A stretch of 64,000 nt of DNA from Chiloscyllium plagiosum (Eukaryota). A program made the position numbers and the translations under genes. Location: assembly GCF_004010195.1 (NCBI RefSeq), contig NC_057718.1, forward strand, positions 86,858,139 to 86,922,138, in the 5' to 3' direction. Below the pieces are notes generated by a model, which was not told the DNA's origin, did no database searches, and was given only the letters and a program-made list of their open reading frames with translations. Positions within the stretch are counted from its first letter, which is position 1; every line of letters begins with the position of its first letter. Positions 7,566 through 54,340 of the stretch are shown piece by piece.

Positions 7566-8974
7566 ATGGAAATGAGACACAATTCTGTTCTGTCAGTTTC
7601 AGGCAGTGTAACATTACACTTTTGTTAAGAAAACCATAACCATTATAAATGCTTGGGTGAGTTTCAAAAGCTATTAATGGTTTCCAGTCAGTGTTTTCCT
7701 AGTTTTAACTAGGAAAGACTTTAATGTAAACTGTTACCTATTTCTTTATTTTCTACTATTCTATGAAGTAATACTTACTCCTACTACCTCACACCGAAGT
7801 CTTTTTTTATCTAGCTATCTTGATATGTAAGATGGCGTCATGTGTGGCTACATTATACACTTTTCACTGTACTCCTAAAATCTAAAATCTACACCTTATC
7901 TAAGTATTGATTCAAGAACCATCCAAACTTTTAAGAAGTTGTAATAACAGAATGCATCTTTGATGTAGTTAACCATGTGTTTACAAACACAATAGATACA
8001 TAAACTAATACATTTTCTGTTAATCCTAAAGCAGATTTTTTTCTGGTAATGATGATAGAATGCTTTATTTCAAGGTTTTATTAGACTGTTAAAGTTTAAT
8101 CTTTTTCCAGTTTTTAAAAAAATGATTTTCACTGCTATTACTTAGCTCCCAAGGACTATACATAGTGCATGCTGGTGAGTGACTATGGAAGATGATGAAG
8201 GTGATATGGGGATCTGACAGGGTATGGAGATGGCATTTCCCTACCCGAGGGGAAATGGTATGGAAGTGGTGATTGGTGAGTGTTATGGGTAATCTGAAAT
8301 CACATCGGGTGACAGGTGAAGTTAGTGAGGAATGAGAGGGATATAGAGGTGGCATGGGCTATCTGAGGGAGCACTGAGTAGGTCAGAGATGAGAAAGTGA
8401 GGAGTAAGCTTTAGGAGGCTTAATTTTCAGAGCTTGGCTGATATACTGGAAAACGTAGACATGCCTTTGTCACGTCTGCACCTATACTGCCATAATTAAT
8501 TAACTTTAAACCCAAGCCATGTATGAAAGGACACAAACCTAGGGAAGGGTCATTGTGTTGAAAGGTGTAAAAGCACGTGGGCCAGACTTTCCTGAGAGCA
8601 CATACCCAAATCCGTACCCAAGCCCTTCTTGGTCATTGTGTTTCATTGGGAGGCATTAACACCACTCAGTGGAGAAGAATGTTACTAATTGTTTGGCACA
8701 GCAGCCCTTAATCTAACAAGACACTAGCCAGTTTGAGGCTTAGCAAATTAACCATGAGGTGGATCAGTAGTCACAGAGGAAGCAGATAGAATCCAACCCA
8801 GGGCTGGAAATTTCGTTTCGCTATATGACAACAGATCACCACTGCAGAAAAACTTGTTGAGGCAAAATTTTGTACTTCACTTAATTGAAGACGTACTCAG
8901 CCTGACTGACATCATGCTTGATTCCAAGGCGAAGACCAACGCTATCATCTTTGGTTGAAACCTTCTTTTGCCAA

Positions 8975-9077
8975 AGTTGAAAATCACACAACACCAGGTC
9001 ATTGTCCAACAGGTTTAATTGGAAGCACTAGCTTTCAGAGCACCCTCTCCTTCATCAGATGGTTGTCAAGTACTTGC
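8975..9077 (-). mobile_element. Short PLE terminal-repeat insertion (second family) with 10-bp TSD
   Basis: cttttgccaa at 8965-8974 and 9078-9087; same terminal sequence as 33195-33290. Confidence 0.8.
9026..9062 (-). ncRNA. Minimal type I hammerhead ribozyme motif
   Basis: Minus strand: ccat-CTGATGA-A-GGAG-agggtg-CTCT-GAAA-GC-TA-gtg. Core intact, palindromic AGCT in place of helix III, 3-bp helix I (cat/gtg). Confidence 0.65.
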
Positions 9078-9466
9078 CTTTTGCCAAGGTTTTGTGTCCA
9101 TTCTTTAGGAACATCTCCCTCTCAAAATCTATAAGCGTAAGTAGTTTCACTCAGAAATGACACTAAATGATATGGGATAGTGACGCCTGGTTAATATTTA
9201 TTCAAGGTTATGATGTATTCTCTTAACACTGGCAATCGTGTCCCAGTTACATCCTGGAACTTTCACAAATCAGTCTCTCATTTCCATGTAGCAAAAGCAT
9301 TTCTATTCATGTACTGTACAACTGGGTACTAGGTAATTACAAAGTGCTTCACAAAATGCCAATGAATATACAAACATACGGATTGGGCCATTCAGCTCCT
9401 CTAACCCCACTCAGTCTTTCAGCAAGATCGTGGCTGGTCTGATTTTGGCCTCAATATCACATTACC

Positions 9467-9502
9467 ATTCCTGAAGAAGGGCTTATGCCCGAAACGTCGA
9501 TT
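9467..9502 (+). ncRNA. Minimal type I hammerhead ribozyme motif (sense to GRM1 pre-mRNA)
   Basis: CTGAAGA 9471-9477, extra A 9478, stem II GGGC/GCCC 9479-9490 with ttat loop, GAAA 9491-9494, C-GTC with predicted cleavage after 9498; palindromic ACGT in place of helix III. Confidence 0.7.
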
Positions 9503-9596
9503 CTCCTGCTCCTTAGATGCTGCCTGACCTGCTGCGCTTTTCCAGCAACACATTTTTCAGCTCTGATCTCCAGCATCTGCGGTCCTCACTTTCTCC
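9468..9596 (+). mobile_element. 129-bp PLE terminal-repeat insertion with perfect 13-bp TSD
   Basis: tatcacattacca at 9455-9467 and 9597-9609 flanks ttcctgaagaagggcttatgcccgaaacgtcg...ctgcggtcctcactttctcc. Confidence 0.85.
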
Positions 9597-10016
9597 TATC
9601 ACATTACCACTTACCTTGATAACCTTTGACTCTCTTGTTAGTCAATAATCTATCTACCTCTGTCTTAAACCTGTTCAATGACCCTATCTCCATTGATGTC
9701 ATTGAAAGAGAACCCCAAGGACTCATGGCATTCTAAGAGAAATAAAAATCCCCTTAAATTTCTGTCTTAAATGGGAAACCCCTTACTTTCAAACTATGCT
9801 TCTCATTCTTGTCTCTCCCAAAAGAGGAAAGTAGTTTTCAGCATCCACCCTGTCGTGTCCCCTCAGGATATTATGTTTCAGTATGATCATCTCTCATTCT
9901 TTTAAACTCCATCTTCTCTCAGTAGCATAGCACCCCCACCTCAGGTATCAGTTGTGTGAACTTTCTCTGATTTGCTTAAAAAAAAATTAAAAACAGTAGT
10001 CAAAATGGTTTGATGA

Positions 10017-17575: not shown

Positions 17576-17692
17576 AGGCGAAAGTGAGGACTGCAGATGC
17601 TGGAGATCACAGTCAAGATTAGAGTGGTGCTGGAAAAGCACAGCAGGTCAGGCAGCATCCGAGGAGCAGGAGAATCGACGTTTCGGGCAAAA
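17576..17692 (-). mobile_element. PLE terminal-repeat fragment, truncated within hammerhead stem II
   Basis: Reverse complement of the 9468-9596 element up to tttgcccgaaacgtcg. Confidence 0.75.
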
Positions 17693-20230: not shown

Positions 20231-20440
<210 letters not shown>

Positions 20441-20677
20441 TGAAAGGATTGGGCTGGTTGCATTCATTGTGAAGGTCAACCCCCAACTTGTTGAGATTAG
20501 CTATTACCTTCTAAATATTTTCTTCGCTGCCCTTCAGAGAGAGAGAAGGAGCTCTGCTGTTGATGAAAGGTTGTCATCCTGAAATGTCAACTCTCTTTTT
20601 CTCTCCTGACAGCCTGAGTACTCCCCTGCATTTTATTTTCACTTCTATTGATGAGGTTCTCTGTTCTGTTTCCACAG

Positions 20678-20804
20678 GTCATTCGGAAGGGGGAGGTGAG
20701 CTGTTGCTGGATCTGCACAAGTTGCAAAGAGAATGAGTACATGCAGGATGAGTTCACATGCAGGGCCTGTGAGCTGGGCTGGTGGCCGAATGCTGACCTC
20801 ACAG
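20678..20804 (+). CDS. GRM1: GRM1 internal exon (127 bp): cysteine-rich domain
   Basis: ttccacAG acceptor, CAG|GTAAAG donor; VIRKGEVSCCWICTSCKENEYMQDEFTCRACELGWWPNADLT(G). Confidence 0.96.
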
Positions 20805-21677
20805 GTAAAGCCACTTTAGGAAAACTGGCCTGAGATTTGGGTAGCATTCTCATAATTAGATTTTGCTGCTTTGACAAAGAACAGGGCAGTTCTTTTCAGT
20901 GTTGTGGTCAAGGTGTTTCTTGCAAACCAATGTCAGTGAAATAAATTATCTGATTATCCTGTCACCGACTGATATCCTTAAGTGGTCAATTGACAACAAC
21001 TTAAAGATCTCTTCATGCTATAGATTATCTCTGGTCCTGGCAGTTGGAGATGAATGTTATTCACAACTCTTATTTCTAATTCATTTCTTTATTTTTTAAA
21101 TATTTTTTCCCTAAAATTTGTATTTAAGCATCTGTACGGAGGTAGTTTGTACCCAAGATGGTGCCATAAGTGGCAACTTTTAAACTTTTCACTGTATTCC
21201 TGTGAGTACAGGTGACAATAAAGCTAATTCTAATTCTATTGTGATCCGTAAACTGTATGGTCTGCCTGCTGGGTGAGGTGGGCTGTGGTGGAGGCCTTTA
21301 ATCTTTTCCAATCTGTGTTTGTTTGTGGGCACGAAGGACAGAAGCTAACCTTGCCTCCAAGCCCCCTGACACCCCCCATCTCTGCATGGCACCCCACACT
21401 CCCACCACATCATCTCCCCTCCAACCAATTCCCCCACCTCCCATGCCCACAGCTTCTGGACTTCTGTGACTCCAGTTGGCCAGCAGCTTGATTGACCCTG
21501 AGGCAGGAGATCACTATCCCAGTGACCACCTAAGTGCACAATAGGTGCGTGATCTGTTGTGCTTTCCAGTCTGTATTGATGGGAATGAGGGAATCTTGCC
21601 TATTTTACACATACCACCACAGTTAGATCAAAAGTGGAGATTCCATCCAATGTCTTTTGTCTTGACCTTCATGAAAT

Positions 21678-22215
21678 ATTATTGCATGCAATTGTGGTCT
21701 CCTTCCTATCGGAAAGATGTTTTGAAACTTGAAAGGGTTCAGAAAAGATTTACAAGGATGTTGCCAGGGTTGGAGGATTTGAGATATAGGGAGAGGCTGA
21801 ACAGGCTAGGGCTGTTTTCCCTGGAACATCGGAGGCTGGAGGGTGACCTTATAGAGCTTTATAAAATCATGAGGGGCATGGATGGGGTAAATAGACAAAG
21901 TCTTTTCCCTGGGGTGGGGGAGTCCAGAACTAGAGGTCATAGGTTTAGGGTGAGAGGGGAAAGATATAAAAGAGACCTAAGGGGCAAGCTTTTCACGCAG
22001 AGGGTGGTACATGTATGGAATGAGCTGCCAGAGGAAGTGGTGGAGGCTGGTACAATTGCAACATTTAAAAGGCATCTGGATGGGTATATGAATAGGAAGG
22101 GTTTGGAGAGATATGGGCCGGGTGCTGGCAAGTGGGACTAGATTGGGTTGGGATATGTAGTCGGCATGGACAAGTTGGACCAAAAGCTCTGTTTGGATGC
22201 TATACATCTCTATGA
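21678..22215 (+). mobile_element. Young CR1 LINE 3' fragment
   Basis: Very similar to 10410-10940; C-terminal part of ORF 21545-22141. Confidence 0.9.
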
Positions 22216-22570
22216 AAGATGTTAAGGCTGTGTGCTTTTAATATTCCCCAACACCATAATGATAACTTTTGCTGGAGTAATGAATTCATGGCCACCAGCT
22301 GCCCAACTACCCAATTTTCATTTGAGTTATATAGAAGGTTTAGTTTGGGATTATGTTCAACATGGATTGGTTGGATGAAAGGCCTGTTTCTGTGCTGCCT
22401 GACTCTATGACTCTATGTCCAGCACAGGAAACGATCATTGAGCCCAACAGTTTAGTATGTCGATGGTACATCATCGCATATCTATCAACATATCTATTTA
22501 GTCCTTATAGTTGTGAAGCATTCACTTATATGCATCTATTCTAGTCAACTGGTCCACTCCTTGTAGTCAT

Positions 22571-23098
22571 AAAGTGAGGCGCTGGAAAAGCACAGCAAGA
22601 GAAGAGCAAGAGAATTGACATTTCGGACATAAGCCCTTCATCATGAATGTGGGGGCTGAAGGGGGCTGAGAAATAAATAGGAGGGTGGGGTAGGGGAGTG
22701 AGGGAGCAGGGAAAGTGATAGGTAGATGCAGGTGGGCAGTGGTGGTGATAGGTCAGAGGGGAGGATGGAGTGGATAGGTAGGAAGGAAGATGGACAGATA
22801 GAACAGTTCAAACCACTCTCTTGAACATATCTGTCCATCTTCCTTGCCACCTATCCACTCCACCCTCCCCGCCAACATATCACTATCACCCCAACCTGGA
22901 TCTACCTATCACCTTCCCAGCTACCTCACCCCCACCCCTAACCTCCTATTTATATTCCTTTCATGCTCCACATTCCTGATGAAGGGCTTATGTCGTGAAA
23001 CATTGATTCTCCTGCTCCTCAGATGCTGCCTGACCTGCTGTGCTTTCCCAGCGCCATACATTTCAATTCTGATCTCCAGCATCTGCAGTCCTCACTTT
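22571..23098. mobile_element. Foldback element made of two inverted PLE terminal repeats
   Basis: Termini aaagtgagg (22571-22579) and cctcacttt (23090-23098); 18-bp perfect inner arm 22783-22800 vs 22828-22845; degenerate hammerhead in each arm; 13/15 TSD-like match 22553-22567 vs 23101-23115. Confidence 0.8.
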
Positions 23099-23214
23099 GT
23101 TCCACTCCATGCAGTAGCAAGTCTCACATTCTCACAAGTTTTTAGGCAGGAAATAATTTGCTGAATTCCTTACTGGCTTTATTAGTTGCTATCTCCTACA
23201 GTGACCCTCATTTT

Positions 23215-23455
23215 TAGTGGCATGGTGGCTCAGTGATTAGCACTGCTATCTTACAGTGCCAGGGACTCAGGTTCAATCCCTCCTTTGGGCGAGTTTGTTT
23301 ACATGGGTTTCCTCCAGCAGTCCTAGGATGTGCAGATTAGATAAATTAGGCATGGGAAAATACAGGGATAAGGTAAGGGGGATAAGCCTGCATGGGACGC
23401 TGTTCAGAGGGTCAATGTAGACTTGATGGGCCAAATAGCCAGCTGTAGGGATTTT
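23215..23455 (+). mobile_element. HE1/V-domain-type tRNA SINE (internally deleted)
   Basis: A box ggtggctcagtgattag, B box ggttcaatccc; partial V-domain. Confidence 0.75.
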
Positions 23456-23702
23456 ATTTAAAAATAAAATGGGGAAACATCTTCTCCAGGTCCACCCCTT
23501 TCAGATTTCTTCATAATGTTAAAGATCTTGAGTAGGTCTTCACTTTATAGTCTTTTTTTCACTATGTGACATGAAATTTGAATGTACGGGCATCCCAAAG
23601 ATCATGAAGCAGGGATTATTTATTACACTGTTATCAGATCATTGCAAATATGAAGGAATATTAATGTTTAAAGAAGAAGACACAGTATTTACCTAGCTAT
23701 AA

Positions 23703-25275: not shown

Positions 25276-25279
25276 TGTA

Positions 25280-35561: not shown

Positions 35562-35779
35562 TCATCTTCCTGCCAGTGGAAACAGGCTCTTTTTATTTAC
35601 TTAACAGGATACTTCACAGAATTACCAGTGCTAGTTAGACATTTTCCTGGCGGTTTCATTGCATAACCTACCACAGTCAGTTACCCCATCTCCAATTTTA
35701 TTTAATGTCAAAGCAAACAAACACGAAGGCATTAAACAGGAAATCAGAGTCTCAAGCAGTAGAGTAATACAATAATAAA

Positions 35780-38010: not shown

Positions 38011-40259
38011 CCAATTCAACAAAAGCGAATAAGGCACATAAAACATTTTAATGCCTCTGTAGGATTTTTCTCCTGGATTGCTCCCAGTCATACTCTGGAG
38101 ACTAGTCTTTAACTCCTGGAGACTTCAGAACAACCCTGGAGGGTTGGCACCCCCAGAGCTGAATGAATCACAGTGCGTAGTCAGCAGAACCAAGTAATGG
38201 TGCCAGAGGAGCAGCAGGTTCCTGATCCCTAACTCAGAGGGTTCAATTATGAAGACAGGTTGCTTGAAGTTTGCAGCCTACATGTGAAATGCAGAGGAGT
38301 GAGAATTTCTGAGTTTTGTATTGTACCCATTGTACGTTTTTAACTTGTCTTGTATTTCCTTGCATTTAAATGGAAAAGGTTGATATACTCCAGCTGTTTA
38401 AAATATTGTACGTATTCAATCAGATAAATGAAAAAATATTTTCTCTGATGGAACAATATAGAACAAAGGGCAAACAAAATTAAAATTGGTTCTAGGCTAT
38501 GCAATAATAAATTCAGGAAACACTTTTTTTAAAAAAACACCAGAAGATGAATGAAATGCTGGATGTCTCTTCGCACCTGCCACCCCTTTCCGCCTTCCGC
38601 AAAGACCGTTCCCCAATCCATGCACCCTAACATCCCCCAGAAAAGCTGTTCTGCCTCAAACCAGCAAGGTTGAAATGTGAAGTTGCTAGATTTTTGATGG
38701 AAAGTGTATCAATTGATATTGTATCAGTGTGGATAAATGGAGTTAAGAAAACTATCAGTCATGATCTAATTGAACATCAGATTGGGCTTGAAGAGCTGAA
38801 TTGCCTCCTTTATCTGATGAAAGTCATACTGCTTTCATTAATGGCCTTGGGAAAGGTAGCAGAATGACAACTGACCCAGTTCTGCCAGACTTCTGGTGTT
38901 TTTCAATGGGAGGGGATGACTGTTCTTGCCGTGTTGATATTAGTTTTTTATATGAAAGTATCAATCCACATTTTCAAAAAAGAACTAAAATTTCAAACAA
39001 GACAATTTAAAACTGTGGTAAGATGTATTGGCCTGTTCTTATCTGAATGACGCTAAAGAGTGGTTTAGAAATGGGAAATGTTGAAGTCAGTTACCAGCAG
39101 CAGCATGAAATGGACTTTTGGCAAATTTAGTCTCACACACACACTTTCAGAATTCTGTACAGATGCTGGAAGACCATGTTCATGTAAACCCTCCTTTCCC
39201 ATCAATGAGAAGATGGCCCCATCAGAACAGCTTGTTTTAAAAGCCAAGGGAGCATCTTGTACAATTAATGAGAGTTTCCTTCCTACCCATCCTATGTCAT
39301 AAAGGGCTACAGAATTAGGAAGTACAGTGTGGACTGACAATCCAGAAAATGAGGGCAAGTCTCATTGCAACACTTTGAGAATTTATTTACGAGCAGCAGT
39401 AAATCATTCAGCCCTTGAGCCAACTGCACTATTCAAGGCAATCATGGCTGATCTGTATCGCCACTCCATTTACCCACCTTATTTCATGGCCCTGAATACT
39501 TTTACACAGCAAAAATTGCTATTTCCCAGGTCTTGCTGCATTTTCGAAAGGAAGAATGGCACTATCCTTTCATGTAAAGAAGTGATTCCTGACATCACAT
39601 CAGAATGATCTCGTTCAATTTTTAAGGTGCCCATGTTCTGGACTCCCCAAATGTGAATTCAGGTTGAAAAAAGTCTTAATCAAAAGTTAGCACTAGTAGA
39701 AGTGTTGGTAAAACTGTTATAAAGCCAGCCACTTGCTGATATGCTTTAGGGGAGGAACCCTGTTATCTTCACCTAGCTTTGCATATATGTGACTCTGACG
39801 CATCGTTGGCTACTTTTCTGAAGCCGCTGAAAAAGCGAATTATGTAAAGCAACAAATAGTGTCCTTGCCAGTGAAGCCCACATCCTGAGAGTGATTTTTA
39901 TCTTTAAAAAAAACAAAAATATTAGTCTTTAAGAAATCTGCTAAGGGAAGACAATTCTATACCTATGAGCACCAGTAAAATTTCGACAAACGAGTAAGTC
40001 ATTTTGATGTTTTCTTCATCCTTTCAAGCTGTTTCACAAAGAGAAATAAGAAAATGTTTCAATTATAGTAGCAGAAGGTGACCCAGATTTCAACCTACAA
40101 CAATAGAAGCAGCCCAAGGGATGCACAGCACAAATGGGAACACCCTCGGATGCATGAACTACTTAGAATTCCCAAATGAATATGGAAAGTTTTATGTGCA
40201 ACAGCTCTTGAAGAACAAAATTATTTTTATATATAATATTTTTCATTACCTTAGGACAT

Positions 40260-40650
40260 CTAGCTTTAAAGCTAGAGAAATGTTTTATAGTGGTCACTAC
40301 ACTGTTATAATGTAACAATCACGACAACCAATTTGTACGCAGATATCTATCACAATCAGTCATGGGGTAGACAGACCAATCATCTGTTTTAGAGATGATT
40401 GACCAGGATGGCAGGGAAAATTTCCCCCTTGGCTACTCTAAAATAATTTCATCACACCTTTCACATCCACCTGAGAGGGCAAAGACATTTAGTTTGATGT
40501 CTGACTGGAAAAGAGGGCATCTCCAGCAGTGCAGCATCCCTGCAGTACTGCATTGGAGTGTCAACTTGGATTATATACTCAAGCCTCAGGTGCAAGATTT
40601 GAACCCATGACTATTTGAAGCAAGAGTGTTACCATTGATCCAATGGCTGA
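40260..40650 (-). mobile_element. Deu-domain-type (SacSINE1-like) SINE, degenerate
   Basis: Minus-strand tRNA-like head followed by gacactccaatgcagtactgcagggatgctgcactg; related copies at 42800-43085/45885-45990, 46320-46600 and 55370-55760. Confidence 0.55.
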
Positions 40651-40929
40651 CACCTAACTGTTTCAGAAGGAGGTTGTTTGAGGCAGCATTTTTACATTTT
40701 ATTTTTGACTGCTTTCTTAGGAATGGAGAAGGCTGCAATGCTATGCCACTCAACTGGCACTTACATCACTACCTTCAGTCTTCCAAGCATAGCTACACGC
40801 AGGTCAAAGGTTGTAGAGAAATTAAGAGTTAATAGAGCACAAATGAGCAAAATAAAGTGGCTGCAGAGGTCCAGGTTGCTACTGGCCAGAGGTTCCTATC
40901 ATTGATTCAGCACCAAGGGGTTCATACCT

Positions 40930-41183
40930 TCCAGCCTCGGGCAACTGTCTGTGTGGAGTTTGCACATTCTCCCCGTGTTTGCGTGGGTTTCCTCTGGGTG
41001 CTCCGGTTTCCTCCCACAGTCCAAAGATGCGCAGGTCAGGTGAATTGGCTATGATAAATTGCCCATAGTGTTAGGTGCATTAGTCAGAGGGAAATGGGTC
41101 AGGGTGAGTTACTCTTTGAAGGGTCGGTGTAGACCGGTTGGGCCAAAGGCCTGTTTCCACACTGTAGGGAATCTAATCTAATC
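40930..41183 (+). mobile_element. 5'-truncated HE1/V-domain-type SINE
   Basis: Intact V-domain and (aatct)n tail. Confidence 0.85.
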
Positions 41184-41199
41184 AAACATGGGAAAGGTG

Positions 41200-42290
41200 C
41201 TGGCTTTAGTGGTATTATTATCAGACCTCCTAATCCAGAAACTCAGTTAATGCTCTGGGAACCTGGGTTAAGACCCTACCATGGCAGACAGTGCAGTTTG
41301 AATTCAATTTTTAAAAAGGTCTAGGGAAAGTAAGAATCTACTGATGACCATAAAACCATTGTCAATTGTTAGAAAGGCCCACCTGGCTCCCTAATGTCCT
41401 TCAGGGAAATAAATCTGCCATCCTCATCTGGTCTGGCCTACATTTAACTCCAAACCCACAGCAATGCGGTGGAATCTCAAATGCCCTCTGAAATGGTCTA
41501 GCCAGAGAATTTAAGAGCGGGAAGGTTATACTGGAACAGTATAAGAAATCCGTTAGGCCACAGCTGGATTATTGTATGCAAACCACATTATGGGAGGGAT
41601 GTGATTGTACCAGAGAGGGTGCAGAGGAGATTTACCAGAATGTTGCCTGCAGAGTTTCAGTTGTGAAGAGAGATTGGATAGACTAAGGTTGTTTTCCTTA
41701 CAGCAGAGGAGTTTTAAAATTTATAATTATTAGAAAGGATAAATAGGAAGAAACTTTCCCCTTTGATGGAGGGAACAATGACCAGGGACATAGATTTAAG
41801 GTACGGGAAAGAAGGTTTCAAGGAATGTCAGAAAACACTTTTTCACCCAGAGATTAGTGGGAATCTGGGACTCAATGCCTGTAAGAGTGGTAAAGGCAGA
41901 AACCCTGTTACCATTTAAGAAGTATTTAGATGTGCCAAGGCATTCAAGGCCACGGACCAAGTGCCATTAGATTAGAATAACAGTGTGGGCATGATGGGCC
42001 AAAGGGCTGTAGATCTCTATGACTATGAAAACTAGCCTCAATAATGGTGACTATCAAACCATTGTTGATTGTCATAAAAACCCATCTGATTCACTAATGT
42101 CCTTTAGGAAAGGAAATCTGCTGCCTTTACTTGATCTGGCCTACATGTGACTCCAGACCTTCAGCCATGTGGATAATTCTAAACTTCCCTCTGAAATGGT
42201 CTAGTAAGACTGTCAGTTCAAGAGCAATTAGGGACGGGCAATAAATGTGGTCTTGCCAGTGACATCCACATCCCATTAATGAATAAAAAT
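41200..42290 (+). mobile_element. Cluster: tRNA SINE (41200-41500), CR1 3' fragment (41505-42030), second SINE 3' part (42030-42290)
   Basis: SINE core occurs twice around a CR1 RT-end/3' UTR segment. Confidence 0.7.
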
Positions 42291-43089
42291 ATGGAGAGCA
42301 AAGCCCCCCAGAAACTGGTAAACATAACGTGGGCATCTCAGAAATGCCCCTATTAATATGATGAGCTGTCTTGATCCAGACTGTCTGTTTTCTTGGCCAA
42401 TTTCAGCGTGCTGGGAGATCAGAGGGGGACAGTCTGGCAGCTGGAATTCAAAGGCCTCACATCTGCCATAAGTTCATCACTGTCAGGACAGTGACATGTC
42501 TGAAGTAAGCAGGGTATCGAGGTGATATCACGTGCATCAGACACCTCCCAGGAAATGAATCGGCCAACAATCAATAGGCAATACCAAACCGCAGCACCAG
42601 ACAATGACAGAGTCACCTATAGGTCCTTTGTGGTCTCTACTCCACAGGAGGCTGGGAGCCATCAAAAGTAATATCAGCACGCCATTGGCAAAACCATGAG
42701 ACTAAGTAGCACACTTAATGATTATCTGAGGTTGTTTCGTCATTGGCTATAATGGAGCCAGAGCCTAGGAAAAGCTGATATTTGGTCAAATACATGAAGA
42801 ACTGCATTTATCTAGTGCCTTTCAGGACATAGGAGTGACATAAAGAATTTCACCACCTATGAAGTGCCAATGTTGTCACATGGGAAGCATAGCTGCCAAT
42901 TTGCACAAAGCAAGATCTCATGAAAATGAGACAATGACCTGATAATTTCCTTTATTGATGTTAAATATTGGCCAGAACACAAAGATATTAAATAATTTCC
43001 TCAGTAGTGGCAAGGCATTTTCTATGTTTACCCAAGAGGGCAGGCAGAGGGTTGAAATAACTCTTCAGAGGCCAGCATCCCATCACCAA

Positions 43090-45880
43090 TCACTTTTGTT
43101 TACAAAAGGTTAGCACTTGACAATAGCACTGCCTCCCGCTGAGTCAGGCATTGAGGACCTCAATATCCCTGACAGCAATCCTTTCTTTTGTCAGCCAAGG
43201 CTCCCTGATTGGACCAGATTAACAGCCCCCATCAGGGAACTCATATTCTATGAGTTCCAGCTGGCTGACCTTGTTATATTCAGTACAATCCCCCCCCCCC
43301 CAGTCCACAGACACGAGGTGGTCTGATTGAATAAGAGCCTCCCGAGGCACTTTAACACTGGGTCAGGGACGTACAACTCAGAATCCAACACGTGAGACAT
43401 GTGATAAATGAGAGTTCGCCTCTTGGACTTGGAGCATCTTCACTCCCTTCTTCCAGAGGCAGAAGCATCAAGGCGACTACTTCCGTAATGTCTGTCTCTG
43501 ATTCAGAGGACTCGACAATGTTTGATGGAGAGGGTGAATCTTCGGCTTGCTGAAGTATTTCTGAAGGCTTCAGGAACAGGACACATTTTGCTCCCACGCA
43601 GTCTGTGAACTTGCAGTTTTCAAATGGTCCCCATGCTTATTCAGGGCAGTTGTACCCTACTCAAACTTTATAAGTCACTGATACTGATCTTGCATCGACC
43701 ATACCTCTGATCCAGTTGGGACCATTTCCATCATTTGTGCATCAAATCTTGTCCCCTGTATCAAGCTGTCTCTCTCGCTTGGCAGAGTATTGGATTTGGT
43801 ACTGGAGTTCCTGATGCTGTTTCAGCACTATTGTTCATCCCTCCCCCCTTACCCCCACAGACCAGGAGGATCAGACCTGGCTTGTTGCAGAGTCGTCTCC
43901 CCATTAGCAACTCTGCCTGTGCTATCACTGTAGTTGCATGAGGGGTGGTCCTATAATAAAAAAGAATCATGATAACTGGTACCTAATGAGGCAGTAGGCT
44001 GTTTCTTCAGTCCTATCTTCAAACTATGGATGCTCTTTCTTCCAGGCCATTGGATGATAGATGGCATGGAACTGTCTGAATATCTCGAATCCCATTCAAC
44101 GTTAAAAAAATACCCAAATTCCCTGCTATTATCTGTAACCAATACCTTTGGGACTCAACGTGTCGCAAAAGATGTGCACAATTTTTCTATCGTTGCTCCA
44201 GTGTTTTACAAATAGACCCTATGCATATCCAACTACTGTGTCTATAATGATTAAGAACATTGAACGCATGAAAAGACCTGCATAATTGACGTGTAACTGA
44301 GTCCAAGGTCTACCCAGCTATTCCCATGATGTGGGGGAATTGCTATTGGTAACTTTTGCCCTTGTTGACACTGTGGGCACTGCTCCCCCAACACAGCTCT
44401 GTTCGCATCCAAGCCTGGCCACCAGGCATAACTCCCTCATCAATATCTTCATGATGGAGTCCAGCCAATACTTAACAGCAGCCTTTGCTCAGGACAATCA
44501 CACTCATTCCCTATAACGATATGCCATCCTCTACCACGAGCTGGTCTCCCCAGATCCATAAAGGTTTTAATTCTAGCTGCGACAGCCTTTTGGTTTCCCT
44601 GATTAATACTAATTGTTTCAGTTTTAAAAGGACTGGACCTTGCTGCATCCAAAATCTCATATTGTCAGCTGTGTGATATTATAGCGTGTCCAGAAAATTC
44701 AATATTATAACTGACCCGCTACCTGGCCTCCTGGACAGTGTTCTAATTTTTAATTAGAAGCACTTAGTATTAGAATGCTGAATGCAGCCTGAAGCTATGG
44801 GCAGCACTGCTTTGTCCTCTTTGAGAAACTAAATATAGGTTTGTGCTCTGAGATTATCAAACATTTTCACCCGTAAAGGTATTGATGGAACTTTTTGACT
44901 CCAAATGTGACTGTCAGTCCTTCTTTTTCTACTTGGGCGTATACAATCTGCATTAGCCAAGGTTTTGGATGCATAAGTATTCCTCTCCAGTGGGCTTCCT
45001 ATGAGCTCATACCATTCCAATGCCATATGGGGAGGCTCCTCACGTGTCAATACCAGATCTTTCTTGGGATCATGCTGTGCCAGCACATTAGAGGATGATA
45101 GTGGGCGGCACGGTGGCAAAGTGGGCGGCACGGTGGCACAGTGGTTAGCACTGCTGCCTCACAGCGCTAGAGACCTGGGTTCAATTCCCGACTCAGGCGA
45201 CTGACTGTGTGGAATTTGCACATTCTCCCCGAGGGGAATGGGTGGGTTGCGCTTCGGCGGGTCAGTGTGGACTTGTTGGGATGAAGGGCCTGTTTCGACA
45301 CTGTAAGTAATCTAATCTAATAGTTACTTCTGTACTTCATCGAAAGCTAGGGCCCGTCAGTAAGATGATTTCCAAGGCTGAGCCTTTTTTAGCAGTTGAT
45401 GCAATGGTGCAAGGTTGTAAATGAACTTTCTGTAATCATTTACCAGGCCTAGATATTACCTCAGCTCATTCACAGATGAGGGAGCCAGGGCACCTTTGAT
45501 CAGCCCAGTCTGGTTGGCCCTGGATCCCAAGTAGGTCACTTGAGGGGCCTGGAACACACATTTTCCCTTCTAAGGTGTACGCGTGCCTCAGAAAAATATC
45601 TTCGGACAATATCCAAGTTCTCTAAGTGTTCCTTATTAATTTTCCCTGCTGTCAGGACATCATCCAGGTAAATGTTGACCTGAGATAGACCTTGCAAAAT
45701 GTTCTCCATCATCCAATGAAAAATTGAAAATGCTGAAGATATGCCAAATGGCAGTCTTGTATATCAGTATGAGCTCTAATGGGTTTCATTTGTAGCCTAC
45801 TTCTGAGAATCCTGGTCTAAATCTAATTGCAAGTATGCACAGCTCATGTCCAGCTTTATGTAAGATAAGCCTCCTACCAG
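43090..45880 (-). mobile_element. Decayed Gypsy-type LTR retrotransposon: RT-RNaseH-integrase-PPT-3' LTR
   Basis: RT RLPFGISS...IYLDDVL; RNase H HDPKKDLVLT; integrase YRTTPHATT...AELLMGRRL; minus-strand G12 polypurine tract (43290-43301) then AT and TGT LTR start at 43287. Confidence 0.85.
45103..45320 (+). mobile_element. HE1/V-domain-type SINE nested in the Gypsy element, with duplicated 5' end and internal deletion
   Basis: gtgggcggcacggtggca twice in tandem; (aatct)n tail; atagt on both sides. Confidence 0.8.
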
Positions 45881-47244
45881 CTAAAACAGCTGCACTCCCT
45901 CACTATGAGTGCCAGCTTAGATTGTGTACTCATATCTCTGGCACAGGACTTGGACTCTCAATTTTGTCATTCAAAAGGAATTCCTGAGTGTATTTGGACA
46001 GTATATTCTGCAGATATTTTTTAAATGGTAATACAGGCACTCTCTATATCAGTGTCTGGTACCGTAATCTGCCAGGCTATTCTGTGCAGCCAGATTCCGC
46101 GTTCTCACTTACCATTTTTCTGGCTGCTATGTGGCTGCAGAATGCTGCAGCTCTTCTTGTTCCATGTATCGGTCTCCTTCGAGAATGAAAGCTATAAGGC
46201 TTATGTTTGTTGAGACCTTGTGAGAAGAGCTATGTGGGTATACAACCCCCAATCTCTCACAGCGTTGGGAATTCATCTTCATTACCCAACGGCATTCCCT
46301 GATGGCAGAATAGGCTCTTGCAATTTGCATTTATACAGTGCCTGTCACGACCTCAGGACATCTTGAAATGCCTTCCATCCACTGAAATGCTTTTGAAACG
46401 TAGTCACTACATTTATGTAGGAAGAAACAGATGAGAGTATGTGTACAACAGGATTCCACAACAGTATTGTAGCAATTATCATAGATATCTTTTTCTCACT
46501 ATTCAGAGATAAGTATGGGCCAGCAGGGTAAGGAATGATTTCGTACCCTGCTTTAAAATAGAAGCATGGGATCTTTTTGCATTCACTTGATTGTCTCAAA
46601 GGTATCCGAGAAAGATTGTGCCAAGGCTTGATGATGGTAGACTTGGTTTCCCAGGAAACCACCCTCCTTTTAAAAATAAGGCGAGCATCAAGCAGAAGCA
46701 TTGTGTAAGGATGGAGGCATTGACTTGCTCGATTTGGTGCTGGTGATCAGAATTGAGACTACCATACCAAAGACAAAGTGAAGGTGTTTCTGTATTCTGC
46801 ATAACGCCCAAATACCATATGAATGCAATAAACAACACACACAAACACAAAGCAGGTTATACTGTATAGCCCCTTCATCCTGCTGTTCCTCAGACTTAGA
46901 CTGTACATTAGCACCTCCATGAGATGCAAATTGTTGACCCCTTCCCCCTCATCCTTTGTGACAGTCGAAGGTTCACTGTTCAATGGATGCTAATGGCTGG
47001 TACATCTTGCTAAGTGTCTTACTTCTGCAGTAAGTAGTAGAGCACCAATGATGACTTCCGGAAAGACCTTAGCCTATTAAGGAACTGCTACTGAATCAGC
47101 CTCAAGTAGCTCAAGTAGCAGTGTCAAGACAGTACACAAAATGAGTAGTGAGTAATAGCAACATAAGAACAGGAGTAGGCCAATCAGCCCCTCAAGCTTG
47201 TTCTACCATTCAATGAGATTGCAGTTTATGGCCTAACTCCATAT

Positions 47245-49280
47245 AGACTCATAGAGGCAGAGAGAGGTACAGCACAGAAACACCCCTTTCGGTCCAACTT
47301 GTCCATGCCGATCAGATATCCTAAATTAATCTAGTCCCATTTACCCGCACTTGGCCCATATTCCTCTAAACCCTTCCTAATCATACACCCATCCAGATGC
47401 CTTTTAAATAATACGCTCCAGGGAAAACTACCCTAGTCTATTCAGCCTCTCCCTTTGGCTCAAATCCTCCAACCCTGGCAACATCCTTGTAAATATTTTC
47501 TGAACCCTTTCAAGTTTAGCAACATTCATCCAATAGGAAGGAGACCAGAATTGCACGCAATATTCCAACAGTGACCGAGCCAACATCCTGTACAGCCGCA
47601 ACATTACCTCCCAACTCCTGTACTCAATACTCTGACCAATAAAGGAAACATACCAAACGCCTTCTTCACTGCCCTATCTACCTGCAACTCTACTTTCAAG
47701 GAACTATGAACCTGCACTCCAAGGTCAATTTGTTCAGCAACTCTCCCGAGGACATTACCATTAAGTGTATAAGTCCTGCTAAGATTTGCTTTTTTAAAAT
47801 GCAGCACCTCGCATTTATCTGAATTAAACTCCATCTGCCACTCCTCAGCCCACTGGCCCATCTGATCAAGATCCCATTGTACTCTGAGGTAACCTTCTTC
47901 GATGTCCACTACACCTCCAATTTTGGTGTCATCTGCAAACTATACCTCCTATGTTAATCCAAATCAGTTATATAAATGATGAAAAGTAGTGGACCCAGCA
48001 CTGATCCTTGTGGCACTCCACTCGTCACAGACCTTCAATCTGAAAAATGAACCTCCACCACAACCCTCTACCTTCTACCTTCAAGCCAGTTCTGTATCCA
48101 AATGACTAATTCTCCCTGTATTCCATGAGATCTAAGCTTGCTAATCAGTCTCCCATGGGGAACCTTGTCGAACGCCTTACTGAAGTCCATATAGATCACA
48201 TCTAGTGCTCTTCCCTCATCAATTCTCTTTGTTACTTCTTCAAAAAGCTCAATCACGTTTGTGAGACATGATTTCCCACACACAAAGCCATGTTGACTAT
48301 CCCTAATCAGTCCTTGCCTTTCCAAATACATGTAGATCCTGTCCCTCAGGATTCCCTCCAACAACTTGCCCACCACCTATGTCAGGTTCACTGGTCTATA
48401 GTTCCGTGGCTTGTCCTTACCACCTTTCATAAACAGCGGCACCACATCAGCCAACCAACTTCTGGCACCTCACCTCACCTGTGACTATCAATGATATAAA
48501 TATCTCAGCCAGGGGCCCAGCAATCACTTCCCTAGCTTCCCACAGAGTTCTCAGGTACACCTGATCAGGTCCTGGGGATTTATCCACTTTTATGCTTTTC
48601 AAGACATCCAGCACTTCCTCCTCTGTAATATGGAAATTTTTCAAGATGTCACTATCTATTTCTCAACATTCTATATCTTCATGTCCTTCTCCACAGTAAA
48701 CACTGATGCAAAATACTCGTTTAGTATCTCTCCCATCTCCTGCGGCTCCACACATAGGCTGCCTTGCTGATCTTTGAGGGGCCCTAATCTCTCCATAGTT
48801 ACCCTTTTGTCCTTAATGTATTTATAAAATCCCTTTGCATTCTCCTTAACCCTATTTGCTAAAAATATCTCTTGTCCCCTTTTTGACCTCCTGATTTCCC
48901 TGTTGAGTATACTCCTACTGTCTTTATACTTGGTCTCTGCTGTCTATACCTTCTTTCTCTTAATCAAACCCTCAATTTCTCTCATCATCCGGCATTCCCT
49001 ACACCTACCAGCCTTCCCTTTCACCCGAACAAGAATATACTGTCTCTGGATTCTCGTTTTCTCATTTTTGAAGGCTTCCCGTTTTCCAGCTGTCCCTTTA
49101 CCTGCCATATACCTGCCACAAAAACAGAAATTGCTGGAGAAAATCAGCAGGTTTAGCAGCATTTGTCTTTAGAAATGATCTCCCATGCAGAAAGCCATGC
49201 TGACTATCCTAATCAGTCCTTGCCATTCCAAATACATGTAAATCCAGTCCCTGAGGATTCCCTCCAACAATTTGCCCACA
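47245..49280 (-). mobile_element. CR1 LINE ORF2 (RT domain), fragmented
   Basis: DKSPGPD, SQHGFVCGKSCLTN, DVIYMDFSKAFDKVPH, FADDTK, WQMEFNSDKCEVLHF; 49170-49280 is a second copy of the 48260-48375 segment. Confidence 0.92.
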
Positions 49281-49289
49281 ACACTCCAG

Positions 49290-49636
49290 GTGCAGTGGTG
49301 ATAGCTGAGTAGTATTATCACTGGACTATTAATCCAGAGACCCAGATAAAGTCCAGGGATCCGGGTTTGAATCCTGCCATGGCAGATGATAGAATTTGAA
49401 CTCAATTTTTAAAAATCTGGAATTAAGAGTCTAATGATGACCATGAATCCATTGTTGGGAACAATCTATCTGGTTCCCTAATTCTCTTTAGAGAAGGGAA
49501 CTTCCATCCTTACCTGGTCTGGCCTACATGTGACTCCAGGCCCACTGCAATGTGGTTAACTCTCAAGAGCCCTCTGGGCAATTAGAGATGGGAAATGAAT
49601 GCTAACCAGTGATGCTCTCTTCCTATGAATGAATTA
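49290..49636 (+). mobile_element. tRNA-derived SINE, full length
   Basis: Head with gggtttgaatcc B box, conserved core, (atga)n tail. Confidence 0.78.
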
Positions 49637-50299
49637 AGTGAAGAAAGGTCCAGTGATCCTCTTCAGAAGTAACCGTCCTTTGGCTCATATTCATTAATAC
49701 TCTTGCTTAACAAAAATTTACCCATCTTGGACTTAAAACTAATAACTAATCTAACAACAAATGCCATTTGGATCAGCCAGTTCTGCCGCTGGGATAACTG
49801 ACTGAACTATCCACTTTAAATTTCAATATCCTGAAGGTCTGTGATACAGCAATCCACTAATACAATGCTCAGTTCATATGACCACATCTCCCCCATCAAA
49901 ACGACAGCACTTGTTCAGTGCTATCGAATGTGACACTGCAATCTCTTGACAAACTCAACCAATTTGATATAGGGCTTCACTAGTTCAGGGTTTGGAAACA
50001 TAATGGTTATGTTACTATATCAGGGAGTGCAAGTTTGAATCTGACCATGCCAGTTTGAGGAAATGAATTCCAATTTTTAAAAAAGGACATTAAAGAAAAC
50101 TGGCATCCGCAACAGACCTCCATTTAAAATTCCATTGCCTTATTTTATTTGATTGACATTAAGACAGAAACAGACATTAAATTTTGATTGAGTGACGATT
50201 ATAACATCCTTGGCACCCGCCACACTCTCTATCCTGCTCCCTGGTCACTGTCACAAACTGAATAAGACACAACTAAACACTACATTAAAATCCTAATCC

Positions 50300-50570
50300 T
50301 CTCCATCAAAAAGTCCACTTGGGTCTATCTCGTTATATAATAAAAACCTCCCTTTACTTCAGCCCACCTGTGTTCAAACATGCATTTGTCACCTCAAGAA
50401 TCAACTATTCAAGTTCTCTCCTTGGCCACTTTTCATCAACTTCCTTTCACTCACTTCAAGTCATCCAAAACTCAGCTATTCTTAATATATTCCTGCCAAG
50501 TCTCAATGCTCAATCACTCCCATCCTCAATGATCTACAGGTCCCATAAAATTCAAACTTAAAACTCTTCA
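50300..50570 (+). mobile_element. L2 LINE RT C-terminal fragment
   Basis: HAFVTSRINYSSSLLG...LQVIQNSA matches the L2 pattern HAFVxSRLDYCNSLL...LQxIQNxA. Confidence 0.7.
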
Positions 50571-50689
50571 ATCTAACAAAAACAAAAATGCTTGAAATGT
50601 TCAGCAGGCCAAGCATCTTCTGTGGAAAGAAATGGAGTTGGTTTTTCAAGTTGAGGTGACCTTTCAGCATTCTGGCTGATGAAAACTGG

Positions 50690-51990
50690 CTTTTATCTGA
50701 AAGGATGAGGTTGATTGGAAGAATATTGAGCTGGATAAATGATGGATGTATGGCTGTATCAATTGATCAATGGGTGGTTACATTAACAAATCTGTAGAAG
50801 AAAGGGTAGTTGTCCATGTTGCTGGTTAGACGGTTAGAAGGAAGGATAAGTAGCTGGATGAATGACTGGCTGGCTGGATGATTTGCTTGGAAATTTATTG
50901 TTTGGATAATTGAATAAAAGAATGCCTTGTTGAATTATGCCCATCTGGATTATTGATTAGAAGTAGCCTGTCTATTTGATGTTCTGGTTGGACACCTAGT
51001 TAGACGTCTAGGTGGGTACTGGTCAACTGAATAGTTGGATGTTTGGTTAATTTCTATTTGATTGGTTACTTGGATAATAGGTTAGACTAACGGATACCTA
51101 GATTATAGGTTAGATGAATGTAAGAATTGAAAGGATGAAAAATCCAATAATAAATCACTGGCTGACTGAATAAAGAGTTATCTAGATGTACATACTCCTG
51201 TTATTCTTATTTCATGTATTATTCTCATATGTAGCTTGGCACAGCAAAAGGTTTGGTTTTGCATGCAGTACAGGCAGATCACACCATACAAAGTGCTTTA
51301 GGGTAATAGAACAGAGCAAAGAATGCAATGTTACAGCTGCAGAGAATGTGCACAAAGAATGAGATCAACACTTAAATTTATAATTTGACAAGTCCATTCA
51401 GAAGTCTGATCAAAGCAAGGAAGACGCTGTTCTTGAATCTTTTGGTTCATGTATTTAAGCTTTTGTACCTTCTGCCTGACAGAAGAGGTTGGGAGAGATT
51501 ATAACTGGGCTGGCAGGGGTCTTTGATCATGTTGGCTGCCTTTCCCAGGCAGCGAGAAGGATAAATGAAGGTACAAAAGTATGGATGGAATATAGGTGTT
51601 AACCTGTTTTGATTGAGTGGCTGGGTAATTTGATAGGCTGCTAGCTGATTGGTGGAATGGCTCATTGGCTGGATATAGTGCAGAATGTATTGATGAATAG
51701 ATAGAGATATTGAAGAGAAGATGATTGGTGGTAGGATGTCTGGCCCACTGGCTTGATGAGTAGATGGATCAATTGATATGTGCATCACTGGATAAAGGCT
51801 GATAGGTGTGCCAAATGTTTGGAGAGGTAGATTGCCAGCAAGGTACTTGAATGGCTAGCTACATGAAGATACAGTCTGCTGGATAGATTAATGTCTGGCT
51901 GGTTTAGTGAGAGATTGGATAGATGGAGAGGTAGTTGGTTGGTTTGTTGGGGTGGGGGGGGGGGGAATTGTTGCTTGTTTGGAATAAAAA
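50690..51990. repeat. Degenerate (TGGA/TTGG/TAGA)n low-complexity tract, interrupted by a Rex1-like 3' fragment (~51210-51560, minus)
   Basis: G/T-skewed, roughly 4-nt-periodic sequence; the insert resembles 10951-11300. Confidence 0.55.
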
Positions 51991-52618
51991 TGGGATGACA
52001 CAGCAAATTCTCAAGCTAAACATAAAGGATTTAAGAGGAATGTTCATTTTATTGCAAAGCCAAAGAGTGTATGGCAAAATCAATCAATAAACATTGCTTT
52101 GTTCTCAATGGATAATTTCCCTGATCTCACTGCGCAATAGTTGTTTTTAATGTGATTATTCCAAATATCTTAAGTAATAGCTTAACTTGTATTGAATTAA
52201 TTGTTTTTTCTGATCTCTCAAGTGAATTCTCAACAACTCAGTCCAGCCCCAATAGGCCTAAGCCCACATTACCAATTTGCCCCAGATCAAATTTCATTGG
52301 TTTTTTTAAACACATAGACTATTGCTTTATAAGGGCTATTATTGTCCCTGTGAATACTGGGCATGATATATAACTAATGCAATGAATTGCAATTATATAA
52401 ATTGCACAATGTAATTTGCAACATGAAATCACCATGAACTTTGCATGTGAAACCAATTTATTTTGCTGTTCTTCAATGTGTTTTTTTTCCCCAATCGGAG
52501 TGGCAATCCCATTTTAAAATGCAAGTATAGAGAGGAGAATTGTAAAATCGACTGTGAAAATATTCAGCTGCAGTTTTGGTGCAAAAGGTTTTAACTGGGA
52601 ATTTACATCTTTCCCCAG

Positions 52619-53465
52619 TTCCAATGGGAAGTCTGTGTCATGGTCTGAACCAGGAACTGGACGGCCAGCGAAAGGACAGCACATGTGGCATAGACTGTCC
52701 GTCCATGTGAAGAGCAAAGATGTTGCATCTAATCAGACAGCTGTAATCAAACCCCTGACTAAACCATACCAGAACCAGATCAAAAACCTCAGCTTCTCAG
52801 ATGCAAGCACAAAAGCCCTTTACAATGTTGTGGAAGAAGATGAAAGTGAACCATTGAGACTCGACATTCCCAATAGTCCAGAAATGATGTTGCAGAGACG
52901 AGCAATGTCTATCACACAGCTTAAAGAAATGGAAGATCCCCAGTTCTTCATTTCTGATCAGTTGCAAAAAGATGTTTCTTCACAACAGTCCATAATGGAT
53001 CAGTTGCACGGAGTGGTCAATACATTTACAACTAATATGACTGATCTTAATTCAGTGCTTACTGTGCCCGTGCCAGTGCCTGGGAATGGGGTGACGCCAT
53101 TGTACCAGCTTGACGAACAAGTGCTCCCACTTCAGATGACTACCTTCAATCCTCAACCCATCTCACCTGTTGAGGAGGAGGAGGAGGAGGAGGAGGAGGA
53201 GGACGAGGAGAGTGAAAGGTTCAACCTCATTGACGACTTCATTTATGACAACACTGAGCACCAGGAGGAACTGGTCGTCCCCAACAAACTCATGTTGGAG
53301 GACTCTCCAGCACTCACACCTCCATCCCCCTTCCGAGATTCAGTGGCATCAGGCAGCTCCGTTCCCAGCTCCCCCATCTCTGAATCAGTGCTGTGTACCC
53401 CACCCAATGTAACCTATGCTTCTGTCATTCTGAGAGACTACAAACAAACTTCCTCAACTCTCTGA
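52619..53465 (+). CDS. GRM1: GRM1 terminal coding exon (long mGluR1a-type C-tail)
   Basis: ttccccAG acceptor; phase 2 joins AG+T = Ser. SNGKSVSWSEP...HMWHRLSVHVK...NQTAVIKPLTK...SPALTPPSPFRDSV...VILRDYKQTSSTL*; Homer ligand PPSPF and PDZ ligand SSTL; TGA 53463-53465. Confidence 0.96.
53172..53210 (+). repeat. Coding trinucleotide repeat (GAG)10 GAC (GAG)2, poly-Glu
   Basis: Read directly; SPV-E10-D-EE-SERF. Confidence 0.95.
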
Positions 53466-54239
53466 AGATTTAAGTCATATAATGAGAAGTTGTAGTTTGC
53501 TGGGGATTTCAACATGAAATATTCAAGGGGGGAAGGGGGAGGTGTGGTTGGGGGCACATGCAATGACTAAGTTTTCAAACATTTGAAAATTAAAAAGGAA
53601 AACAGTTTATTATCCCAGTTGTCTGTACAGTCAAGATGCCTGTAATCATGTGATTAGAGTTCCCTTGCTAAGTCCGGGAAACATCTAGATTATGTAGCAA
53701 CTCAGAACAATAGTTTCAGAAACATTATTGTAGAGGTAGGCATGTTAAAATATGCTATTTTATTGCATACTTCTTTCATTTCAAATAGTTATTGTATTAT
53801 AATTGTTGGGCAGTCTGATATTTCACTTTGTGCCAACTTCCAACTGTTAATACCAACTGTCAGGTGAACTGCTGTGTTAGTTATGTGCGTATGTTTATTG
53901 GGTAGCAAAGGCTGTAGCTTCTTATTTGCAAATCAAAACTGGGTCAACAAGATCAACTCATCAACAATAATCTGCAATGTGTTCAAATCCTGGAGTTCTT
54001 TATTCCTCACAGTTTGCCTCACCTGTGACAAGCAACCCATTTAGGGTGGGTCACCGTGTAACATTTATATCTGCTACCTAACAGAAAATGGTGCTTTACC
54101 TGCTTTTAAATACAAATGGCACCCTGTCACAAGAGGACCTGTTATTCTTGCTTCCTCCAGAAATAGGGGCGATAAGCTCTCCACCCATTACAACCATTTC
54201 TTGAGTGCTTCTTCCAAACCTGAGGAATGCCACAGTAGT

Positions 54240-54340
54240 ATAGACAGGAATTGCTGGAGACATGCAGCTGGTCTGGTAACATCGGTGGAGAGAGAAACAA
54301 GTTGAAGTTTCGAGTCCAAAAATGACTCCTCTTCAGAAAC
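54240..54340 (-). mobile_element. PLE-derived short element with hammerhead core, in the putative GRM1 3' UTR (antisense)
   Basis: Minus strand 54338-54301: tt-CTGAAGA-G-GAGTC-atttttg-GACTC-GAAA-CT-TC-aac. Confidence 0.65.

Follow-up and report, generated by a model that had tools for sequence, protein, structure and literature searches.

Hammerhead motifs at a glutamate-receptor locus

The window analyzed here, a stretch of 64,000 nucleotides (nt) from the 3,556,477,427-base assembly of the shark Chiloscyllium plagiosum, covers exons of a metabotropic glutamate receptor gene (20231..53462, +) together with short inserts that carry hammerhead ribozyme motifs and very probably derive from Penelope-like elements (PLEs). 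The open frames of the host gene lie on the plus strand at 20231-20440, 20618-20830, 27673-28653 (7tm_3) and 52518-53462 (GluR_Homer-bdg); a further receptor exon is located about 4 kb upstream of the window, hence bases 1-20230 are intronic. An initial annotation had listed nine motif-bearing stretches and assigned them to at least three families (A, B and C) with one hammerhead architecture and different stem II pairs. All nine stretches are present at the positions given, and the common architecture across several repeat families is borne out, compensatory pairs included. The estimate of about ten motifs in 64 kb is not supported as it stands: only three of the nine stretches keep both the core and stem II, and the remaining six are relics.

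A strict descriptor (CTGANGA, one extra base, a stem II of at least four pairs, and GAAA) matches the window at 9471 (+), 9058 (-) and 54336 (-). These three matches compare with a mean of 0.1 and a maximum of 1 in 40 dinucleotide shuffles of the window. Among the three core-intact copies, only that at 9471 has every feature. It belongs to a solo mini-insert of family A (A1; 9467..9597, +), which spans element positions -4 to +126, is bordered by a 13-bp target-site duplication and lies in sense orientation within an intron of the receptor gene; the complete minimal hammerhead occupies 9467-9502, with the cut predicted between 9498 and 9499. The second copy is part of a family B mini-insert (B1; 8972..9073, -) bordered by a duplication of about 10 bp, and its intact core (9058->9029) has G.U wobbles at 10.1:11.1 and 2.1:1.1. 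The third lies in an old family C pseudo-long terminal repeat (pseudo-LTR; 54246..54349, -), antisense to the receptor and about 870 bases beyond its stop codon. Its core (54336->54304) is intact and its helix III palindrome is lost (ACUU); folding energies give +4.3 kcal/mol for the self-duplex, compared with -1.7 for ACGU. None of the 31 matches that Rfam gave for the window at E values up to 1 is to a hammerhead family, and the window holds no tandem array whose units each carry a hammerhead.

The relics illustrate how these copies decay. Two mini-inserts of family A are truncated at the 5' end and lack CTGANGA: 7335..7412 (A2, -), truncated at +8, with its motif remnant at 7392-7411, and 17589..17692 (-), truncated at about +12, which retains only the 3' half of the motif (17677-17690). 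The former is bordered by 17-bp target-site duplications (7318-7334, 7413-7429), and its empty site is preserved in a local paralog at about 9930-9955. Here, 7413-7565 and 9800-9952 form a local inverted duplication with 93% complementarity; since only one of the duplicates contains the insert of family A, this insert either postdates the duplication or entered by copying at a later point. Older pseudo-LTRs of family A with their 3' untranslated regions (UTRs) make up a head-to-head inverted pair (22580..23090) with two decayed hammerheads, one with an altered C3 (22644->22617, -) and the other with a broken stem II (22976-23004, +). The central hairpin of this pair (22715-22912) yields sub-threshold Rfam microRNA matches. 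So does a stretch at 19069-19186, which belongs to an inverted repeat, rich in AT and about 270 bases long, that encloses a (TG)n tract (arms 18993-19094 and 19161-19262), resembles a miniature inverted-repeat transposable element and contains no hammerhead. Both were rejected as microRNA candidates: their scores are below the gathering score, and both are inverted repeats.

Family B is further represented by a broken, 5'-truncated PLE (33193..35094, -) with 70-79% identity to a long family B copy at another locus (L122). It comprises a reverse transcriptase (RT) relic (34816-34460), a CX4CXXC linker, a GIY-YIG relic split by a short interspersed element (about 33661-33980), a 3' UTR, and a pseudo-LTR whose hammerhead (33276->33248) has lost G12. 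At the 5' side of the element lies an inverted B2 pseudo-LTR (35280..35563, +), whose hammerhead (35476-35504) has also lost G12; its inverted partner is a B2 pseudo-LTR relic with a deleted 5' core (32885..33190, -), which had been overlooked initially. Both 33276 (-) and 35476 (+) read AAAA in place of GAAA, which results from CpG decay of C11.1-G12. Hence AAAA and CTCT, previously regarded as family B traits, are decay variants (CG -> CA and CG -> TG); exact genome counts confirm GCTCCGAAAGCT as a common B form.

Several other features were observed in the window. An open frame at 1-555 (-) resembles the N-terminal, repeat-containing part of a family A open reading frame (ORF; compare locus L073, 6585-7001), and is followed by a pseudo-LTR fragment at 679-733 (+). 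Another open frame (26060-26488, -), with an LMEVDTG motif, resembles the aspartic proteases of retroviral type that LTR retrotransposons encode. Downstream of the receptor, the first exon of a RAB32-like gene of the Rab family (63102-63704, +; Pfam Ras/Roc) lies in a GC-rich stretch that follows an assembly gap (62565-63064). From its C-terminus and this neighbor, the receptor gene is presumably GRM1.

Parent elements, families and genome-wide load

Family A hammerheads are found about 155-180 nt behind open frames with DKG, an RT core, PCX4CXXC and GIY-YIG/CCHH (loci L183, L188, L189 and L192); the Pfam matches to RVT_1 and GIY-YIG fall below the curated cut-offs. Some family A ORFs (L183, L187, L083) contain in-frame tandem duplications of 14-38 codons, in up to dozens of copies (L187), which are either genuine expansions or assembly artefacts. 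For family B, RT, linker and GIY-YIG features occur in L122, in L067 and in the window relic at 33193-35094. L122 is a near full-length, broken element with pseudo-LTRs at both ends, a CX4CXXC linker and a (CA)n tract, and the window relic is a truncated copy of it. The RTs of A and B share 38.6% identity over 350 residues. Initial protein searches gave 74,708 candidate RT places for A and 16,782 for B, which are not copy numbers. An endonuclease relic on the same strand within 700 nt upstream accompanies five of 20 family C loci and two of 12 family F loci; with the family A endonuclease as query, none was found upstream of 20 short B loci. In family E, the hammerhead follows GIY-YIG without a linker (L246, L248). 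The expected family-by-family link to a PLE can thus be drawn for A, B, C, E and F, but not for D. By the motif criteria described in PMC8557442, A, B and C would be classified as Neptune-type and E as Penelope/Poseidon-type.

The assignment to PLEs is based on this RT and endonuclease link and on three insertion hallmarks: tail, inverted pairs and target-site duplications. In A, B and E, the tail appears as two 3' ends separated by about 35-45 nt. Roughly half of the arms are accompanied by an inverted neighbor: 92 of 195 in A and 32 of 59 in B, a tally in which both arms of a pair count. Among the A copies that are not inverted and have no assembly gap in front of them, 95 in total, 31 were long and four were dropped for a different 3' UTR; among the 60 solo copies left, 16 have duplications of 8-23 bp, compared with three of 300 random sites.

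The hammerheads were tabulated in 14 subfamilies with 2-61 copies each, belonging to families A-F. The families A, F, D and C have a common downstream sequence and are mutually alignable; B and E differ from the others in flanks and ORFs. A and C, first described as sequence-distinct, therefore possess homologous pseudo-LTRs, which makes their covariation better evidence. The core CUGANGA...GAAA..UH, itself the search criterion, is found in the majority of copies in all 14 subfamilies. The extra base between 9 and 10.1, which like the G10.1-C11.1 pair belonged to the descriptor, is A in A, B, C, D and F and U in E; the proposed rule of one extra purine consequently applies to the window but not genome-wide. 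Positions 15.2-16.2 are palindromic (CG or GC) in 11 of the 14 subfamilies. C2 (four copies) has TG, which we read as CpG decay, and E2 and E3 have CA, an apparent exception to the palindrome. The palindrome had been attributed to A and B, which indeed possess one, but the majority of family C also has ACGT: the majority form is GAAACGTT, and the GAAACTTC of the initial annotation is a mutated copy.

None of the genome search patterns constrained helix I. Some of them did include stem II arms, which makes helix I the clean covariation test. Across the 14 subfamilies, 40 of the 42 helix I pairs are Watson-Crick pairs, compared with a shuffled mean of 14.5 (maximum 33 in 20,000) and with 5-8 of 42 in a slid-register control. 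Among the pairs, 2.1:1.1 is C-G, U-A or A-U; 2.2:1.2 is U-A, C-G or A-U; 2.3:1.3 is G-C, C-G or U-A (U.U in A1 and A2); and 15.2:16.2 is C-G in A, C1, D, F and E1, flipped to G-C in B. Within the A/F/D/C group, helices I and II of 11 aligned single copies pair in 90.9% of cells, with both-side changes in five of eight pairs (three of four for helix I); the covariation score of 0.455 was reached by none of 500 shuffles, and slid controls gave 0.04-0.13. The core catalytic letters and U16.1 are constant across lineages, and the helix letters vary freely.

The genomic load is very high, as had been suspected from the window, and larger than the guess. The generic core (CTGANGANG-N9-17-CGAAANNTH) matches the genome 228,583 times, or 64.3 times per Mb, versus 740 times for the reversed pattern; the window contains two of these matches, the genome mean being about four per such window. 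Twelve 100-kb blocks, chosen regardless of content, give the same density (75 matches in 1,165,948 bases). Out of these 75 matches, 74 have at least three of four stem II pairs, 55 the palindrome and 57 the first two helix I pairs; all three features coincide in 41, which extrapolates to about 125,000 genome-wide. Exact matches to the family patterns number 53,445 for A, 20,723 for E, 5,005 for B (GCTCCGAAAGCT), 1,533 for D, 1,375 for F and 672 for C, lower bounds of differing strictness with reversed controls of 0 for all six. If decayed pseudo-LTR pieces are included, 245 were counted in the first eight blocks (780,325 bases), corresponding to about 1.1 million genome-wide, a count that takes inverted pairs twice. 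The family A stretch was also found in sequencing runs under three coded organism labels from 7 studies, which indicates that the family is common to related species.

Copy ends, decay and competing explanations

For the decay analysis, 90 A and 30 B copies starting at -3 or earlier were compared at non-CpG changes with matched bases. Core and flank changes amount to 31/898 and 170/3599 in A (p 0.10), and to 13/300 and 60/1320 in B (p 1.0); G12 has changed in 18 of 89 cases and flank CpG in 19 of 90. Genomic copies decay neutrally. Since the core decays at the flank rate, its invariance across families reflects the transposing masters, and the copies in the host drift. The selection on the RNA fold that had been proposed therefore likely acted on transposing master elements, but not on host copies. 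An apparent protection of core letters (4.4% versus 8.4%) did not survive the removal of subfamily-polymorphic columns and a comparison with matched bases.

The 5' ends of the copies have a sharp boundary. Of the 60 solo A copies, 18 begin at the 5' edge of helix I (-5/-4), and their flanks are unrelated; seven of 59 B copies start at -3, the edge of the 3-bp helix I, six of them in inverted pairs. Merely 37 of 195 A arms extend beyond -30, short copies being far more numerous than long ones. Among 8,639 matches to ATTCC, the preceding base is G in 2,738 and T in 504; with background frequencies of 0.171 for G and 0.262 for T (ratio 0.65), the G excess is about eightfold. The first 100 ATTCC matches listed have C in 49, G in 33, A in 13 and T in five cases, C being the element's own letter. 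RTs are able to add a base opposite the cap; our literature searches found no paper on untemplated addition in Penelope-like pseudo-LTRs and none on a non-templated G from the cap in the reverse transcription of retrotransposons. Both the sharp edge and the G excess fit run-off copies of a capped RNA leader. The long 3' end of family B falls on an ATG that may open the ORF and is located about 120 nt past the hammerhead core; the short copies would thus span the 5' leader. Two other readings of the ends were dropped: a splice acceptor at the -4 boundary, as AG is present in C, D and F but not in A, B and E, and a record of cleavage, of which an early hint was gone in the larger sample for A and is weak for B.

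Taken together, these data make it very probable that minimal type-I hammerhead folds are present in the pseudo-LTRs of several Neptune- and Poseidon-type PLEs, that they are predicted to cut only as dimers or with the help of a protein, and that they were selected in the masters and then decayed neutrally. Helix III would arise when two copies pair through their 4-nt palindromes (ACGU or AGCU), and the cut would fall after GUC, GUU, CUA or CUU. The element transcript would start at the 5' edge of helix I; the RT would prime internally 85-125 nt downstream, at two tail ends, and run off the capped 5' end. Most genomic copies would then be 85-130-base copies of the uncut RNA leader, inserted solo or head-to-head, which would account for the great surplus of the ribozyme motif over the coding region. 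For this leader model (start at the helix I edge, internal priming, and run-off from capped RNA), the arguments appear evenly balanced. More tentatively, and with doubt slightly prevailing, we suggest that the load is 25 to 57 times the per-genome counts of the defining paper, obtained with a different descriptor, because the RT primes near the capped 5' end and runs off, that around a million short copies map the transcript start, and that the ribozyme acts as a leader switch. If so, it would strip the element mRNA of its capped leader, about 32 bases long, with only uncut RNA being copied, rather than cut tandem transcripts into units.

Several observations weigh against the overall interpretation. 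For most copies, predicted folding favors structures other than the hammerhead, which is the minimum-energy fold in A3 only. This subfamily has a perfect 4-bp helix I and adjoins the best-kept open frames. In the full insert at 9467-9597, the predicted pair probability of helix I is at most 0.02. A1 and A2, the two largest subfamilies, have the U.U mismatch within helix I. In E2, eight of ten copies have the non-palindromic ACAU at helix III, a misfit to the dimer rule; in the Poseidon-type E2 and E3 (e.g. L248), ACAU represents either an exception at the level of the master or strand-biased decay. The covariation counts cover related subfamilies and not independent events, so that the nulls overstate significance, and stem II arms sat in several patterns. 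Family D has no endonuclease link in 14 loci, apart from one weak match. At the 5' ends, A shows no excess of copies that begin at the predicted cut site (3/195 at +28/+29); B has 5/59 at +28 to +30, a weak signal, and several of these are at inverted junctions owing to helix I microhomology. G precedes only five of 13 sampled solo copies starting at -4, and its excess could reflect terminal transferase activity or the centers of inverted pairs instead of a cap. Family A occurs in both orientations among RNA reads (2,837 of 12,955,460 records, ~2% of run X19, whose organism, coded B, may differ from the species of this genome), including 985 records on a young element with an ORF. These reads cross the predicted cut site and show no pile-up of ends, a weak test given that the poly(A) library was fragmented; they fit read-through and intronic transcription and say little on cleavage.

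Some of the same observations bear on other explanations. Short copies could be non-autonomous mini-elements that resemble short interspersed elements, possess their own masters and are mobilized in trans by the PLE protein. Sharp ends, target-site duplications and the great surplus of short over long copies agree with this, and pseudo-LTRs alone have been reported to be sufficient for trans mobilization (PMC3846280). We consider it somewhat unlikely, because the diagnostic letters and the two tail ends are the same as in ORF-bearing subfamilies, 5' ends also scatter from -5 to +20 around the peak, and neither an own promoter nor a poly(A) tail was seen in these copies. Another explanation, also unlikely in our judgment, is that the pseudo-LTR retains the fold for protein binding or as a promoter signal, cutting being of minor relevance to transposition. 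The weak helix I of A1 and A2 would be in line with such a role, as would the derivation of the inserts from uncut RNA; moreover, ribozyme mutants of the green anole element insert normally in vitro, and no RNA ends at the cut were detected for that element (PMC11167929). However, the same ribozyme cuts with its protein present (PMC11167929), and the core letters and U16.1 are constant between RTs of about 39% identity (A and B) and between Neptune and Poseidon types.

The complete sense copy at 9471 in the intron and the RNA reads in both orientations raise the question of whether the host has preserved these ribozymes for the trimming or regulation of its transcripts, such as the glutamate-receptor pre-mRNA. 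We regard this as very improbable: core letters decay at the rate of the flanks and G12 at the CpG rate, six of nine listed copies are dead, and reads span the cut site without accumulating ends. Host use is thus disfavored on average; single copies may have been domesticated. Chance matches, or one repeat family counted repeatedly, have a practically negligible probability. With one mismatch permitted, the window gives 11 matches versus a shuffled mean of 2.95 (maximum 9), some of which are due to chance, and A, C, D and F are homologous; but the genome-wide excess over the reversed patterns and the different flanks and ORFs of B and E contradict this explanation.

Comparison with known systems

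Judged by their sequence, the motifs are PLE minimal hammerheads: all testable features are present, and cleavage is predicted. They would work like a dimer-dependent or protein-assisted type-I hammerhead. Architecture and multi-family pattern are already published for metazoan PLEs (Cervera & De la Peña 2014, PMC4209133), where six consensus families with about 4,000 motifs are given for coelacanth and eight families with about 9,000 motifs for Xenopus. Common to those minimal hammerheads and the present ones are the type-I core, the extra base between 9 and 10.1, G10.1-C11.1, palindromic 15.2-16.2, a helix I that is short, the presence of several consensus families with compensatory changes in one genome, and mostly single dispersed motifs with some opposite-strand pairs 100-700 bp apart. 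Unlike them, helix II has 4-5 bp here in A-D and F, and the core matches amount to 228,583, although the descriptors differ. The shark host is apparently new, no shark being found in the texts searched; new as well are the count far above those reported, the neutral decay, shown here directly, and the boundary at the start site. With at least six families and 14 subfamilies, the shark genome allows covariation to be assessed cleanly in the weakest hammerheads; in addition, the start and stop points of a Penelope RT are marked by the ends of about a million insertions.

A literature search on hammerhead ribozymes in cartilaginous fish, or on Penelope hammerheads of sharks, yielded no relevant report; the word 'shark' in a hammerhead-ribozyme review refers to the shape of the fold only. 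Canonical hammerheads have a helix III and loop-loop contacts, and no Rfam hammerhead model matches here. Closer are the small PLE variants which Lünse, Weinberg and Breaker reportedly found in 2017 to cleave as dimers, with about 150,000 over all genomes; they share the reduced stem III, the dimer mechanism and the association with PLEs. Non-LTR retrozymes, found in one chondrichthyan, likewise originate from PLE pseudo-LTRs and have type-I hammerheads, but they form tandem arrays, in contrast to the solo or head-to-head copies described here (bioRxiv 10.64898/2026.07.22.740005).

As in the endonuclease-positive PLEs Neptune and Penelope/Poseidon (Craig et al. 2021, PMC8557442), we observed a C-terminal GIY-YIG, 5' truncation, inverted 5' copies, a tail, and a CX2-5CxxC linker in A, B and C but none in E; the clade names used here rest on motifs. 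The pseudo-LTR of Drosophila Penelope contains an internal promoter (PMC2377424). The in vivo role of PLE hammerheads is stated as open in PMC8557442 and PMC11167929, and the start-site boundary makes one answer directly testable. In the available text of PMC11167929, no treatment of short-copy 5' ends was found. The green anole Poseidon element PAc (Frangieh et al. 2024, PMC11167929) differs in that its ORF begins inside stem II, compared with about 120 nt behind the core in family B. It resembles the shark elements in its pseudo-LTR hammerhead, insertion from uncut RNA, the lack of RNA ends at the cut site, and two internal RT start sites giving a 30-40-bp tail.

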